Below, in pieces: positions 21,022-56,399 of a stretch of 64,000 nucleotides of DNA; position 1 is the first letter of the stretch, and each line of letters starts with the position of its first letter. The position numbers and the translations under genes are program-made. Origin of the DNA: Ostreococcus lucimarinus (taxonomy: Eukaryota); NCBI GenBank assembly GCA_000092065.1, contig CP000601.1; one strand, given 5' to 3'. The notes beneath the pieces were generated by a model. The model did no database searches and had not been told where the DNA came from. It worked only from the letters and a program-made list of their open reading frames with translations.

Positions 21022-22396
21022 GTGGAGAGTTTGCTTAAGCCCGACGCGGGAAGAGATGATATATTCCACGCCGCGGGTCAAGGGTTAGCTGGTGTCGGAG
21101 GCGACGTCGTAGCGATTGGTTGGTGGGACTCACGCGGGGTAGAAGGCACGTCCCCGCAACTTGAATTGCAGGCGCTCAACGACGGCGCCAGGGCACAACT
21201 CATAGGGGTGGTGCTCTTGGCGCTTAAAGAAGGGCTCGAGAACATAGAAGAGAGCAACGGAAGCTTGCGTGAACTCATTCAAACAGTGGCTAGGGTCTCC
21301 GCGAATGATTGGATGAATTCGATGGCGCTTGACATCGGCGCCAAGGAGCGGTGCGCTCGGGTGGTTCGCGTGGCCGGAGACGTGGCCGATGAAAAAATTT
21401 GGCAGAACGGTACGTATGATCTCGCTTTCGTCTTCGACCGAGCTGATCGCGTTTTTCACAGGAGAAATACTTGAAGGAAGTAAGATGGCTTTGTATGCCG
21501 GAGTGATGATGTATTTGGCCAAGGTACGTCTAACTTTCGCTGAGCTTCACAAATATTTATTTAATTATTCTGAATTATTTCAATCATCGCAGAACTCCAA
21601 TCGAACGGACAATATTTCCGAAAGCGTTCAAGTCGTTGAGAAATCGACGAAAATTAACACTCAAGACGTCGAACCGGTGCTGGAATTCTTCAATTCTCCT
21701 ATGGCTTCGGTGTGCGTTTCGGTTTTGCAGGACGTGGTATTAAATATTGCCGACTCCGTGGCGTGTGCTTACGTGACGTGTGCGCGTGAAAGCGGGCTAC
21801 AAGCGCCTGTAAATGGTGGAGTCGCACGTACGGAGGACACAGGAGCGGTCGTGCGCATTCCACCGTTCAGAGACGCGTTGAGCGTTCGCTTGAAGAGCAC
21901 ACGTTCGTTGGAAAAATTTCGAAATGAAACATCATTGCGCACGTGGCTTGCACGCAATTATTACGACGTGGTCGCGATGTACGAAGATTGGCATAAATTG
22001 TGGGGCATGAATGCAAACGGCGAGGTACGTATCTCCGCGCGACGGCGCGTTTGAATTAATTTTTTAATTTGTCGCTGAAATTAATTATTTTTCACACAGC
22101 TCGTGACGAGGAAAATTCACGTTTGTCGCCAGCCAGAGCTCGCAAAGGTGAAGGGATTTCGTTTAGCTGTTTCTATGATAATAGAACTCGCTGATGTGAG
22201 CCTTCCCTTGTTCAGAAGCGCACTGAACAACTGCAGCCGGGTGGCTTCTTGGTTACTGGTGACATTAATTGGTGCGTTTGAAATTAATTATTTTGTGCAT
22301 CGACTTACTCTCTCTAACGCAGGCCGTTCGCTTGGATTGGTGTATCGTGGAATCAAAGAAAGCATGGACCCTCAAAACAGAGTGAAATTCACGTAG
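21022..22396 (+). CDS. Multi-exon gene of unknown function (at least 5 exons; small AT-rich introns)
   Basis: Consecutive plus-strand ORFs (21022-21409, about 21462-21525, about 21591-22025, about 22099-22272, about 22323-22396) are separated by short GTACGT/GTGCGT...CAG intervals rich in A/T. Exons are lower-GC than neighbouring genes. No family recognised. Confidence 0.45.
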
Positions 22397-24479: not shown

Positions 24480-25753
24480 ATGGCGACTCAAATGCAGCTC
24501 AGAGGCGTGCTCAAGGGGTGCGTCGCGCGAATCGATGATCCGAGCGCGCGTCGCGTCGCGTCGACGGCGAACGCGCGGCGAACCGATCGTTCGTGGAATA
24601 GGGTCTGCGCCATCGAACGAGGCGGACGTTGACGCTCGCGGCGGCGGCGCGCGGCGATGGGACGCGCGACGACGGCGACGCGTTCGTGCGATGATTATTT
24701 CACGCGTCGAACGCGCGTCGTCTCGAGCGCGTGACCGTTCACGCGAAACGGACTCGAGCTCGACGAGCTCGATCACGACGTCGAACGACGACACTAACCC
24801 ACACGTTTTTTTCATTTCCGCGCAGGCACGAAAACTGGGTCACGTCCATCGCGACTCCGTTGGATAACTCTGACATTCTCTTGTCGTCCTCGCGAGACAA
24901 GACGGTGATCCTTTGGAACCTGACGCGCGAGGAAGAGAACTACGGTTACCCGCGCCGATCGCTTCACGGACACTCGCACTTCGTGCAAGACGTCGTCATC
25001 TCCTCGGACGGGCAATTCGCGCTCTCGGGGTCTTGGGACGGCACCCTTCGATTGTGGGACCTTAACACCGGTACCACCACCCGACGCTTTGTCGGACACA
25101 CCAAGGATGTCCTTTCGGTGGCTTTCTCCGTGGACAACCGCCAAATCGTCTCCGGCTCCCGGGATAAGACGATCAAGTTGTGGAACACGCTCGGCGAGTG
25201 CAAGTACACGATTCAAGACGCCGACGCGCACTCCGAGTGGGTGTCGTGCGTGCGCTTCTCCCCGGTCACCTCCAACCCGATCATCGTGTCTGGGGGCTGG
25301 GATAAGCTCGTCAAGGTCTGGAACCTCACCAACTGCAAGATTCGCACCAACCTTGTTGGTCACACCGGCTACATCAACGCCGTCACCGTCTCTCCGGACG
25401 GTTCCTTGTGCGCCTCCGGCGGCAAGGATGGCGTCGCCATGCTTTGGGATCTCGGCGAGGGCAAGCGATTGTACTCCCTCGATGCGGGTGACATCATTTA
25501 CGGCTTGTGCTTCTCCCCCAACCGCTACTGGTTGTGCGCGGCGACCGAGTCCTGCGTCAAGATTTGGGACCTCGAATCCAAGTCCATCGTCGACGAGCTC
25601 CGCCCGGAGTTCCCGCCGGTTGGCAAGAAGTCCCAACAACCGTACTGCACCTCCCTCCAATGGTCGGCGGACGGTTCCACCCTCTACACGGGCTACACCG
25701 ATAACGTCATTCGCGTTTGGTCGGTCGGTTCCGTGGGCACCGGCATGATGTAA
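24480..25753 (+). CDS. RACK1: RACK1 (guanine nucleotide-binding protein beta-subunit-like, WD40); two exons: 24480-24517 and 24826-25753
   Basis: Exon 1 encodes [13 protein letters not shown] and ends at GTGCGT (24518). The 308-nt intron has a CACTAAC branch point and polypyrimidine...CAG acceptor at 24823-24825. Exon 2 continues in frame [30 protein letters not shown]...[32 protein letters not shown]..., a canonical RACK1. Confidence 0.85.
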
Positions 25754-38461: not shown

Positions 38462-39535
38462 CTAAACTTGATGCATCGCCTTGACTTCGGTGAGAACATT
38501 TCGCACTTTATCATCGGGCTCGTCTCTCAGCCCGGGAATCTCGCCGACGTCCGTTGAGGCGTCGCCCAAGAGCGCGCGGAAAGAATCCGCGACGCCTTCG
38601 CTCAAACCCACCAAATCATACCCGCCCTCTAATAAGAACACGATTTTCCCGCCGCACATCTCATTCGCCAGTTCTTTCAACTTTGTGCAAAGACGATGGT
38701 ACGTTCCCGTGCGAAACGTCAACCCAGCGAGAGGATCTCGCCAGTGCGCGTCGTAGCCGGCACTGACGATGATGAAGTCGGGTTGGAACCGCGCCGCCGC
38801 CGGAACGACGATTTCTTCCAAAGCGCTCAACACCGCCTTATCACCGCTTCCCGGAGGCAAAGGTATATTAATAGTCGCACCCAGACCATCGCCTTCGCCC
38901 ATATCCGTAATCTTCCCCGTCCCCGGATAGCTCCCGTCCTCGTGCGTGGAGATGAACAGCACGGAATCGTCGTCTCGGAAAATATCATTCGTACCGTTAC
39001 CGTGGTGCACGTCGTAATCGAAAATGAGCACTTTTTTATGCCCTCTAAGCTGCGCGTGTCTCGCCGCCGCCGCCGCGGTGCCGACCAAACAAAATCCCAT
39101 CGCCCCTCGCGGCACCGCGTGGTGTCCCGGTGGGCGTATCAAACCAAACGCGCTCGGCGCCTTTTCTTTCGTCTCCTTCGCGCGATCGATCACCTCATCC
39201 ACCAATCGCGTCGCCGCACCGACGCCTAGCATCACGTCTTGAAAGCTCGACGGCGTGCAGTACGTCGGTGCGGTGTCTAAATTCGTCGGCGCTCGCGTGG
39301 CGCACAACAACTCGAGCCCGTTGCAGTAATTCTTCGCGTGCACACGCTCGAGCGCCTTTTTCGTCGCCGGCACGACGTCTGTGATCTCCAACACCTCACC
39401 CGGTCTCGCGGCGGGGGTCAGAGCGCCCGCCTCGAGGGCGTCTAAGATGGCGGGCACGCGAGCGTTGCTCTCCGGGTGCCCCAACTGCACGTGCTCCAGC
39501 GCGGCGGAGGTGGCAAAGAGCAGCGACGGGGACGA

Positions 39536-39566
<31 letters not shown>

Positions 39567-39661
39567 ATTCGTCGCGCGCGAGACGGGTGACGCTCGGCGC
39601 GACGCGACGCGCGCGGTGACGCGGGCGCGACGCGAGTGAGATGGACGCGAGGACGCGCCAT
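38462..39661 (-). CDS. Class II (HDA14/AcuC-type) histone deacetylase with organelle-targeting-like leader
   Basis: HDAC catalytic blocks: GFCLVGTAAAAARH, KVLIFDYDVHHGNGTNDIF, VLFISTHEDGSYPGTG, FQPDFIIVSAGYDAHWRDPLAGL, LLEGGYDL. Confidence 0.8.
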
Positions 39662-40008: not shown

Positions 40009-40803
40009 ATGTTCAACAAGGACTACGAAGTCTATCGAGACGAAGTGGGACCGAACAATCGCTGGCTGTTTCTGAATCGCGAAGGGAAGGGTTTCTTCGA
40101 CCCGACTGGGTACATTGACTTGGAAAACTACACGCGAATCGACCCGAACGATAAGAAGAAAGGGCAAGTGCTGTGGAAGTTGAAGTACAACGAAAAACCG
40201 CACTTTGATATGGGGATGTCGCTCGGAGCCGACTCGGAGGACGACGGCGACGATAACCCCAACGTTCGAACCGTGACGAACATGTTCAAGCAGATGATGC
40301 AACAGATGCAGATGGGAGAGAACAGGTTTTACTCTATGAAATGGCGCACGTTTTCCGAGGCCAAGTTGAAGTCGGTGAAGACCCCGGGCGGGGCGTACTC
40401 GGTGAAGATCAAAGCCAAAGGCTACTGCACGCGTCAAGTGTCGGTGCACTATACCAGAGACGAACAAGGACACCAACGTCGGAATGTGAACGTCACCGAC
40501 AAGGAGTACGTGACGAAGATTTCGTACAAGATCAAGACCGCCGATGGGACGACGATCGATCGATTCGATCTCTTCTGCTGCGAAGGCTCCGACTTGAAGT
40601 GGGAGTGCGCCGCCTTCACCGCCGAGCTCCGCGGCGGTTGGATTTCCAAGTACCCGCACGAGATCACGACCAAGCCCGGCATCGATCCCGGTTTCGCCTT
40701 GCTCTTCGCGCACGTTTGCGTCACTGAGTTTGCACCGGACGAGATCAAGAAGGACTTGAAGCCCAACTGGAATCAGTGCCCCGGATACATCAATCCGTAT
40801 TGA
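40009..40803 (+). CDS. Hypothetical 264-aa protein, no family recognised
   Basis: Clean ORF with good coding compositional signal (MFNKDYEVYRDEVGPNNRWLFLNREGKGFFDPTGYIDLENY...FCCEGSDLKWECAAFTAELRGGWISKYPHE...). Confidence 0.45.
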   Translation: MFNKDYEVYRDEVGPNNRWLFLNREGKGFFDPTGYIDLENYTRIDPNDKKKGQVLWKLKYNEKPHFDMGMSLGADSEDDGDDNPNVRTVTNMFKQMMQQMQMGENRFYSMKWRTFSEAKLKSVKTPGGAYSVKIKAKGYCTRQVSVHYTRDEQGHQRRNVNVTDKEYVTKISYKIKTADGTTIDRFDLFCCEGSDLKWECAAFTAELRGGWISKYPHEITTKPGIDPGFALLFAHVCVTEFAPDEIKKDLKPNWNQCPGYINPY

Positions 40804-41075
40804 TGAAACCAACGTTCCGCCGCGTTCCGTTCCGGCGCGCGACGTGACATGCGTCTACGAATGACTCTATTTACGGTTAATAAGATAAATATATAATCAT
40901 ACACGCACTCCTTTGCGTCGTCCATCGCCGTTCGATCTCGCGCGTCTCGTCGCGATGGACGTCTCGCGCCCCCGGTCGGTTGCCCGGGGCCCGGGTGTCC
41001 GTCCAACGAGATCGCCCACGGATCGTTCGCCTTCGGTCGTCACTCGCGCGCGCGGTCGACTTCCCGCCGCTCGCG

Positions 41076-41597
41076 ATGGTGGCCGTCGGCGACCAATTCC
41101 CCGACGTCGTCGCGCAATCGCACGAGCCCTCCTGGCCGACGCCGGTGAAGATGCGCGCGCGTCTCGCCGGTAAAAAATCGCTCGTCGTCGGCCTGCCCGG
41201 CGCGTTCACGCCGACGTGATCGACGTGTCAGGTCCCGGGATACCTCGCGGGGCAGGACGCGCTGCGCGCGAGCGGGATCGATGAGGTGCTGGTGATGTGC
41301 GTGAACGACGCCGCCGTCATGGGGGCGTGGGCGATCGATCAAAAGATTCAAGGGTCAAACATTTCGTTCCTCGCGGATCCGAATTCGGTGATCACGAAGG
41401 CGCTGGACGTGGAGCTCGTCGCGCCCGGACCGTGCGCGAAGCTCGGACCGAAGCGATGCAAACGCTTCGCGATGTACGTCGACGATGGGGTGATCAAGGT
41501 GCTGAACGTGAGCGAAGCGCCGGACGATCCCGCGGGAGACGCGCGACCGGAGGCGTCGTGCATCGACAACATGTTGAAGGAAATCGCGGCGTTGTAG
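41076..41597 (+). CDS. Prx5-type (type II) peroxiredoxin with in-frame TGA (41217-41219) at the peroxidatic-Cys position: candidate selenoprotein
   Basis: A single reading frame 41076-41597 reads MVAVGDQFPDVV...GKKSLVVGLPGAFTPT[TGA]STCQVPGYLAGQDALRASGIDEVLVMCVNDAAVMGAWA...FLADPNSVITKALDVEL...KRFAMYVDDGVIKVLNVSE. This aligns to Prx5 PGAFTP[C]S...VNDAFVM...RRYAMLVDDGVVK. The only stop in this frame lies where the catalytic Cys is expected. Confidence 0.65.
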
Positions 41598-41664
41598 ACG
41601 CGCGCGATGACTTTGACGGGACGAAGACGACGAGGTTCAACGCGATGGTTGAGGATGTGCGCGT

Positions 41665-41730
41665 ACGTACGTGACGCGACGCAGCGAAAGGGCTGATGTT
41701 ATTGGCTCGCTGCGTCGTCGATGGAAACGA
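41665..41730 (+). promoter_or_regulatory. Candidate SECIS element in the 3' UTR of the TGA-containing peroxiredoxin
   Basis: 12-bp helix (41676-41687 pairing with 41707-41718) flanked by 5' GUGA (41671-41674) and 3' GA (41720-41721) that could form the non-Watson-Crick quartet. AA at 41688-41689 opens the apical loop. About 70 nt downstream of the TAG stop. Not folded computationally. Confidence 0.35.
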
Positions 41731-42094
41731 ACGCGGCGTCCGACGCCGCCGTCGCCGGAACGCGACGTCGTCTTCTCGAGTTTACTTTATATACAGAATA
41801 AGCGTCGTGCCGCGTCTCGCGACGCGCGGACAAAGGCGGCGTTAGGCGGAGTTTCGTCGATCGATCGTTTTGATTTCCGTTTCTTTCGTCCCCCGAACCT
41901 TTGTGAATACATTTACGCAACGACGAAGAAAAATAAAACCGCGGCGCTCGTCTTCTCGTCCTCCGCCAAACGAACGAACGAATGATGCGCTCTTAAAATT
42001 TAAAAATTAAAAACGGTGATTAATTGCTATTGCTGCGCTGCGCGTGCGAGGAGATGGATACAGTGAATTGAAATTTGTTGTAATCGACGCGCCG

Positions 42095-56016: not shown

Positions 56017-56140
56017 GACGTCGTCGTCGTCGCCGACGGCGCGCACGTCACGCTAAACATCGCTCGCCGCACGCGTCGTCGCGAAGTGCCGGCGCGCGGT
56101 CGCCGAGGGCGATTTCGTTTTTTCGCGAACCATCGCGCGT

Positions 56141-56207
56141 CGATCGACGGACGTCGATCGATCGATCGATCGATCGAACGATCGACCGATCGATCGATCG
56201 ATCGACC
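56141..56207. repeat. (CGAT)n-type tandem repeat
   Basis: cgatcgatcgatcgatcgatcgaacgatcgaccgatcgatcgatcgatcgacc. Confidence 0.85.
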
Positions 56208-56399
56208 GCGCGCCAAGCCCCCTCGCGCCCGCGCGCGCGCCCGCCCAGGGTCCAGCGGTCCAGGGGCGGCGTCGAATCAATCGTCCGCCCTTCCGCAGTG
56301 CGCGGCGTGACCCCGGCGCCGGCGTCGCGCGCGCTTCGACGACGACGGTCCCGACGATCGGACGACCCGACGAACGCGCGCGCGCACGGCCGGATCGAC

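Follow-up and report, generated by a model that had tools for sequence, protein, structure and literature searches.

The 64,000-nucleotide stretch of Ostreococcus lucimarinus DNA analysed here (GenBank assembly GCA_000092065.1, contig CP000601.1; hereafter the window) carries on its forward strand a single-exon gene for a cytosolic-looking, 173-residue peroxiredoxin of the Prx5 (type II, atypical) class, whose peroxidatic residue is, with a probability that we put at about 0.95, selenocysteine (Sec) encoded by an in-frame TGA. The hairpin that lies in the 3' untranslated region (3'UTR) of this gene is a eukaryotic type-2 selenocysteine insertion sequence (SECIS) element of the GUGA type. A preliminary description of the locus, made from the letters of the DNA, had proposed a candidate selenoprotein at this place, and that proposal is now supported by the conservation of the TGA, by the signature of purifying selection and by covariation within the SECIS. 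All the refutation tests that the preliminary description listed have turned out in favour of a selenoprotein. Since 2007 the gene has stood in the literature together with its Sec codon and the SECIS type of Ostreococcus, and we therefore treat the locus as an annotation case and make no claim of discovery. Added here to the published account are the conservation of the TGA at the level of populations and genera, the ratios of nonsynonymous to synonymous substitution (dN/dS) and a covariation test of this SECIS.

The published record is that of Lobanov, Fomenko, Zhang et al. 2007 (Genome Biol 8:R198, PMC2375036), whose Additional file 2 contains a 'Peroxiredoxin' alignment with an O. lucimarinus row. 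Errors of machine reading aside, this row equals the translation of the window gene over its whole length, M1 to L173, and has U as residue 48; its segments read MVA..VGDQFPDVVAQ / SHEPSW.TPVKMRARLA..GKKS.LVVGLPGAFTPTUSTCQVPGYLAGQDALRAS / ... / ...EASCIDNMLKEIAAL. The same alignment includes the O. tauri protein, two Sec-peroxiredoxins from Thalassiosira pseudonana and bacterial homologues with Cys, and Table 2 of that work credits O. lucimarinus with three peroxiredoxin selenoproteins and O. tauri with one (PMC2375036). The O. tauri orthologue, ostta09g00190, was subsequently quantified as 'Peroxiredoxin' at high abundance among 24 selenoproteins (Kay et al. 2022, PMC8834552), and Sec-peroxiredoxins are among the most widespread selenoprotein families of algae (Jiang et al. 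2020, PMC7539508). The preliminary description missed both the earlier publication (PMC2375036, Additional file 2) and this wide algal distribution (PMC7539508). Its remark that Sec-containing peroxiredoxins are rare is untrue for marine algae, as many marine homologues carry TGA at the Sec position, and so do 29 of 44 full-length homologues found in a general protein search (PMC7539508 and below).

The forward-strand reading frame at 40980-41597 is interrupted solely by a TGA at 41217-41219, as the preliminary description states of this open reading frame (ORF). From the ATG at 41076 to the TAG at 41595-41597 there are 173 codons, of which the TGA is codon 48, and the peptide that flanks it, LVVGLPGAFTPT-TGA-STCQVPGYLAG, is likewise the one originally given. 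The coding region is composed of the following parts:

41076 to 41216, forward strand: codons 1-47 (MVAVGDQFPD...GLPGAFTPT), encoding the N-terminal strands and Thr45 of the PxxxTxxU motif (translation)
41217 to 41219, forward strand: the Sec48 codon, an in-frame TGA at the peroxidatic position (alignment to Cys47 of PRDX5, conservation, and U in PMC2375036)
41220 to 41597, forward strand: codons 49-173 followed by the TAG stop at 41595-41597 (translation, Pfam, dN/dS)

The 173-residue translation, in which a placeholder stands for residue 48, matched the Pfam Redoxin family (PF08534) with E=6.5e-22 and AhpC-TSA more weakly; a scan of NCBIfam, a library oriented towards prokaryotes, gave no match to it. 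The nearest solved structures are all of the Prx5 or type II class, namely 3UMA, 4F82, 1H4O/1HD2 (human PRDX5), 1TP9 (poplar) and 1NM3 (Haemophilus), and the placeholder aligns with chain residue Cys47, the peroxidatic Cys of human PRDX5 (1H4O/1HD2), in keeping with the original reading of a Prx5-type protein with TGA at that position. The active-site PxxxTxxC(U) loop is complete, with P41, T45 and U48 complemented by the distal R130, and L40-T47 and R130 are invariant among 45 homologues. The segment encoded 3' of the TGA contributes Cys51 (in a U-S-T-C motif), Cys128, the catalytic Arg130, a conserved DDPAGD motif and Cys162. In short, an in-frame UGA in a conserved ORF is aligned with the Cys of PRDX5 and of the Cys-form homologues.

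Three orthologous loci, L001, L004 and L007, were retrieved by means of their truncated downstream ORFs, and show 86%, 80% (L004, O. tauri-like) and 78% identity to the window gene, respectively. All three have TGA at the same codon as the window, and in them protein conservation begins precisely at the ATG. In a wider scan of metagenomes, 80 loci were reduced to 34 distinct relatives with 51-100% identity; TGA occupies the Sec position in 34/34 of these and a Cys codon in 0/34, a count to be read with the bias of this set towards the subfamily, since STCQVPGY was among the search peptides. This outcome, together with L001, L004 and L007, answers in favour of TGA the question, raised in the preliminary description, of whether orthologues have Cys or TGA at this codon. 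Additionally, six contigs (L013-L018) encode a 125-residue region after the TGA which is 100% identical to that of the window, and the TGA is present in all of them. An independent sample was provided by the general protein search, in which 44 full-length homologues displayed W at the Sec position in 29 cases and Cys in 15; the W represents TGA translated by gene callers under another genetic code. TGA also terminates 11 of the 27 ORFs of at least 300 codons in the window, and therefore the codon is not reassigned genome-wide and its recoding is specific to the site.

We compared the window gene with six orthologues of the Ostreococcus clade by the Nei-Gojobori method. Upstream of the TGA (47 codons) dN/dS is 0-0.25, and downstream of it (125 codons) 0.11-0.33, values which point to purifying selection acting on both halves of the gene. 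The 60 nucleotides 5' of the ATG show an ungapped identity of 18-40%, which is near chance. Evidence at the level of the transcript, which the preliminary description had suggested as a check, comes from a Bathycoccus-like relative: contig L072 equals the genomic locus L056 (compared at about 500-690) minus a 182-nucleotide GT..AG intron situated 16 nucleotides upstream of the TGA, and so derives from a spliced mRNA that spans the TGA and runs into the 3'UTR. The Ostreococcus gene differs from this orthologue in that it has no intron and begins with MVAVGD, whereas the Bathycoccus-like gene has both the intron and an N-terminal extension. This extension, of about 77 residues, is rich in Ser, Thr and Gln and resembles a targeting peptide.

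A variant arrangement was encountered in the metatranscriptome contig Ga0307388_10187673 (L089:1-1240), where a single open frame codes for an N-terminal region rich in lysine and, after it, for two Prx5 domains in tandem. Both domains have TGA at the peroxidatic position (PGAFTPT-TGA-TTCQ and PGAFTPT-TGA-STCQ), and the contig ends within the second. It would be a eukaryotic tandem peroxiredoxin with two Sec residues.

The 3'UTR hairpin was already recognized in the preliminary description, which gave it a 12-base-pair (bp) helix, a GUGA/GA core and unpaired A residues. These features are all present: the core begins 73 nucleotides past the stop codon, and the unpaired residues are the AAA at 41687-41689. 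The element comprises the following parts, in which R1 denotes a covariance model introduced below:

41654 to 41740, forward strand: the whole SECIS element in the 3'UTR (minimum free energy fold, RNAalifold consensus, covariation and model R1)
about 41654-41668 with 41727-41740, forward strand: helix I, with an internal loop next to it (fold)
41671 to 41675, forward strand: 5' half of the core, consisting of G41671, UGA 41672-41674 and C41675 (TGAC invariant in nine orthologues)
41676 to 41685, forward strand: 5' arm of helix II, pairing with 41709-41718 through one G.U and nine Watson-Crick pairs
41687 to 41689, forward strand: unpaired AAA (AAR motif), 12 nucleotides after the core UGA (invariant in nine orthologues)
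41690 to 41708, forward strand: apical mini-stem and loop, with 41690-41695 paired with 41703-41708 (a type-2 SECIS feature; covariation)
41709 to 41718, forward strand: 3' arm of helix II (covariation count)
41719 to 41722, forward strand: 3' half of the core, consisting of C41719, GA 41720-41721 and U41722 (TCGAT invariant in nine orthologues)

By analogy with the established SECIS structure, the GA at 41720-41721 and the UGA at 41672-41674 would form the tandem G.A/A.G pairs of the core. In O. lucimarinus helix II is lengthened to 12 contiguous bp (41676-41687 with 41707-41718). Previous work has defined the Ostreococcus SECIS signature as a G before the quartet, found in all but one element, and a long mini-stem (PMC2375036), and the window element carries both features. 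The G precedes TGAC in most of the nine Ostreococcus-clade sequences compared, with A in the L031-L036 clade, while TGAC, AAA and TCGAT are invariant. The A in place of G (ATGAC) was observed in L031 (core at about 1137-1188), L032, L033 and L036, which belong to one Ostreococcus clade, and the single ATGA-type SECIS was reported to belong to one gene in O. tauri and to another in O. lucimarinus (PMC2375036); the G/A state before the quartet seems to flip easily.

A scan for SECIS geometry over both strands of the window (128 kb) recovered this hairpin as the sole match with a 12-bp helix free of mismatches, and zero matches of that quality were obtained in 30 sequences simulated under a first-order Markov model. 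The corresponding pattern, GTGAC-N9-12-GAAA-N20-40-TCGAT, is expected by chance 0.15 times per window. Two other positions in the window bear some likeness to a SECIS and were rejected. At 21773-21835 on the forward strand, inside a 241-codon ORF (21329-22054), a GTGAC is combined with an 8-bp helix containing one mismatch and a GAAA bulge, and since about 3.6 such matches are expected per window it was treated as a chance occurrence; the match at 24731-24773 has no helix. The geometry scan detected a counterpart of the hairpin in all Ostreococcus- and Bathycoccus-like orthologues whose downstream sequence was long enough, again in the 3'UTR, and Micromonas-like orthologues were found, by pattern search and folding, to have a SECIS in which helix II is interrupted by an internal loop.

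RNAalifold applied to nine Ostreococcus-clade sequences recovered helix II, the mini-stem and part of helix I. Covariation was counted in the same nine sequences on the specified SECIS structure, with controls in which the pairing partners were slid by 1-3 columns and with 500 shuffles. Paired cells amounted to 91%, as against 23-48% in the slid controls, and changes on both sides occurred in 16 of 21 pairs; 0/500 shuffles reached the observed value. The signal is distributed over all three helices; in helix II (helix 2) 97.8% of cells are paired, with both-sided changes in 6/10 pairs, and in the mini-stem (helix 3) the figures are 94.3% and 5/6. A covariance model (R1) was built from seven orthologues, with the window and its near-identical copies excluded, and matched the window at 41651-41743 on the forward strand with 61.9 bits (E=3.4e-15). 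The next match of R1, at 56130-56228, is a self-complementary (CGAT)n microsatellite of about 90 nucleotides, seen on both strands, and was discarded as a low-complexity artefact.

Certain results could be counted against a Sec-containing product. When the 3'UTR of the window gene was scanned with the Rfam SECIS model, nothing was found at E<=10. The model was equally blank on 10 orthologous loci, among them the O. tauri-like one, and, as the window and all 10 orthologous loci are missed alike, this negative is uninformative and the model insensitive for the lineage; SECISearch3 is likewise known to miss some SECIS elements of Mamiellophyceae (PMC6627142). R1 itself, a family-specific model, returned no significant match in Bathycoccus-like, Micromonas-like or more distant orthologues, and the SECIS elements of the Bathycoccus- and Micromonas-like orthologues were those located by pattern search and folding. 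A tRNA scan of the 64-kb window found none, and neither a tRNA-Sec nor another gene of the Sec machinery lies there. Finally, the incorporation of 75Se concerns O. tauri proteins in general and not the O. lucimarinus protein itself.

If the main reading holds, decoding would follow the pathway established for Sec in eukaryotes: the SECIS, about 455 nucleotides 3' of the UGA, would bind SBP2, which would bring eEFSec with Sec-tRNA[Ser]Sec to the ribosome, where UGA-48 would be read as Sec. Mamiellophyceae have the complete Sec machinery (PMC6627142). The alternative that survives best is that a near-cognate tRNA inserts Cys or Trp at UGA-48, yielding a full-length protein without selenium, and the proteomics of the O. 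tauri orthologue does not by itself show a Sec-containing peptide. However, a SECIS maintained through compensatory substitutions across genera makes sense only if it is used, and this lineage has, besides the full machinery, many selenoproteins (PMC2375036, PMC6627142), with 75Se being put into many proteins of O. tauri (PMC2375036). Moreover, Cys is a single mutation away (TGA to TGC or TGT) and yet is never found in the subfamily. We accordingly regard near-cognate readthrough as highly improbable.

The preliminary description had named a pseudogene or sequencing error as the simple alternative, that is, a recent nonsense mutation or a miscalled TGC or TGT in a gene for a Cys-peroxiredoxin. 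A fresh pseudogene or an error in base calling would likewise show one in-frame stop, and automatic gene callers do take the TGA as a stop, yielding pieces of 47 and 100-103 amino acids (aa). Nevertheless, the same TGA recurs in independent assemblies of 34 distinct relatives and in L013-L018, the low dN/dS on both sides of it comes without frameshifts, and a covarying SECIS lies downstream; we therefore dismiss this explanation, which retains a negligible probability. No better placed is the view that the TGA is a genuine stop separating a 47-residue peptide from a 103-residue protein started at a GTG at 41286, with the hairpin otherwise used, for example in mRNA stability: the 100-103-aa product does stand in databases as an independent 'peroxiredoxin' ORF, in one case from an MMETSP transcript, but neither piece would be a complete thioredoxin fold, the active-site residue would be lost, the stretch from the TGA to the GTG (codons 49-70) is conserved like the remainder, the hairpin has the exact SECIS core nucleotides in a form invariant across species, and a GTG start is unexpected in a eukaryotic nuclear gene, so that we assign it only a vanishingly small chance.

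From the chemistry of Prx5 enzymes, the Sec48 selenolate, positioned and activated by Thr45 and Arg130, would attack the peroxide to give a selenenic acid, which would react with a thiol to form a selenenylsulfide, and this in turn would be reduced by thioredoxin or glutaredoxin. As to the thiol, Cys51 of the U-S-T-C motif is kept in Ostreococcus-, Micromonas- and Bathycoccus-like sequences, other sequences having R, K or T in its place. Cys128 lies in the motif RCKRF and occurs in 38 of 45 homologues, no less often in Cys- than in Sec-forms, and was rejected as a Sec-specific partner. Cys162 is Leu in most members of the family; we tentatively take it to lie at the position of the resolving Cys151 of PRDX5. 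A self-resolving UxxC peroxiredoxin could be envisaged, in which Sec48 and Cys51, one helical turn apart, would form an intramolecular selenenylsulfide that replaces the distal or intermolecular resolving thiol.

A second feature that could refine the picture is a stable hairpin on the forward strand at 41224-41261, 7 nucleotides after the Sec-UGA, formed by Val-Pro-Gly and Ala-Gly-Gln codons (z=-1.84). Against shuffles of synonymous codons its z is -2.7 in the window and -5.0 in the O. tauri-like L004, but its mean over 17 orthologues, -0.87, does not stand out from what control regions of the gene show. Significant in two lineages and not over the 17 orthologues, it finds no support as a conserved Sec-redefinition element; it may be a lineage-specific element of that kind, or mere codon composition. 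Taken jointly, the UxxC reading and a role of this hairpin in Sec redefinition in the O. lucimarinus and O. tauri-like lineages strike us as rather unlikely, and if true they would refine the picture of an already known selenoprotein, without amounting to a system of a new kind.

The same hairpin bears on decoding of the bacterial type, in which Sec insertion depends on a SelB-binding hairpin located directly 3' of the UGA within the coding region. This mode was rejected here, as the hairpin 3' of the UGA lacks consistent conservation and the bacterial SECIS families of Rfam gave no match around the UGA. A bacterial selenoperoxiredoxin, PrxU of Eubacterium acidaminophilum, was reportedly described by Sohling et al. 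in 2001, with Sec at the peroxidatic position. The Ostreococcus protein shares this placement of Sec with PrxU, whereas the SECIS for its decoding lies in the 3'UTR and is of the eukaryotic kink-turn type. In the classification of Lobanov et al. the algal protein belongs to the 'homologs of bacterial selenoproteins' (PMC2375036). With human PRDX5 (1HD2/1H4O) and the plant type II enzymes (poplar Prx D, 1TP9) it has in common the thioredoxin-fold Prx5 subfamily (E=1.8e-25 to 3e-24), the PGAFTPxC active-site loop, and the conserved Thr and Arg. It differs from them in having Sec for the peroxidatic Cys, a further Cys three residues on (U-S-T-C) and a 7-residue insertion, containing DDPAGD, before the C-terminal helix. 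The Sec-peroxiredoxins of Thalassiosira pseudonana and other algae (PRX, PMC7539508) share with it the PGAFTPTU motif and decoding through a 3'UTR SECIS; the members from outside Mamiellophyceae have mostly R, K or T at U+3, where Ostreococcus has Cys, and Leu in place of Cys162.

The gene is embedded in a neighborhood whose order is kept in the orthologous loci L001, L004 and L007: a histone deacetylase (HDAC) gene, a gene for a 264-aa protein, the peroxiredoxin gene and an AOX-like gene. Two of these neighbors were delineated in the window:

38465 to 39661, reverse strand: HDAC gene, whose product is residue-for-residue equal to XP_001419469.1 of O. lucimarinus CCE9901
40009 to 40800, forward strand: ORF for the 264-aa protein, which clusters with O. 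lucimarinus protein P0140 (298 aa)

The identity of the HDAC product marks the window as nuclear DNA of this picoalga. The HDAC is represented by a pair of accessions, ABO97762.1 and ABP01312.1, and P0140, from the cluster of the 264-aa ORF, likewise has two, ABO97972.1 and ABP01222.1. These double accessions suggest that the region is present twice in the O. lucimarinus assembly, and such a duplication might partly explain the count of three peroxiredoxins against one in PMC2375036.

Members of this family are mishandled by public gene models in different ways. In the first, the gene is split into separate 47-aa and 100-103-aa ORFs; in the second, translation under a code that reads TGA as Trp places W at the Sec position (P0001, P0013 and 27 others); and in the third, an invented intron deletes the active-site segment GLPGAFTPTUSTCQ, as in models from Pavlovales (P0023), Prasinoderma (P0030), Nitzschia (P0075) and Chrysophaeum (P0087). 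The gene deserves correct annotation, and the practical value of the present analysis is that of an annotation case for such a mishandled family; it is also an instance of a true selenoprotein gene that was recognisable to a first-stage reader from raw sequence. The Rfam SECIS model misses all tested loci of this lineage. The covarying set of orthologues assembled here (alignments A3 and A4 and model R1) could seed a SECIS model that is aware of Mamiellophyceae.

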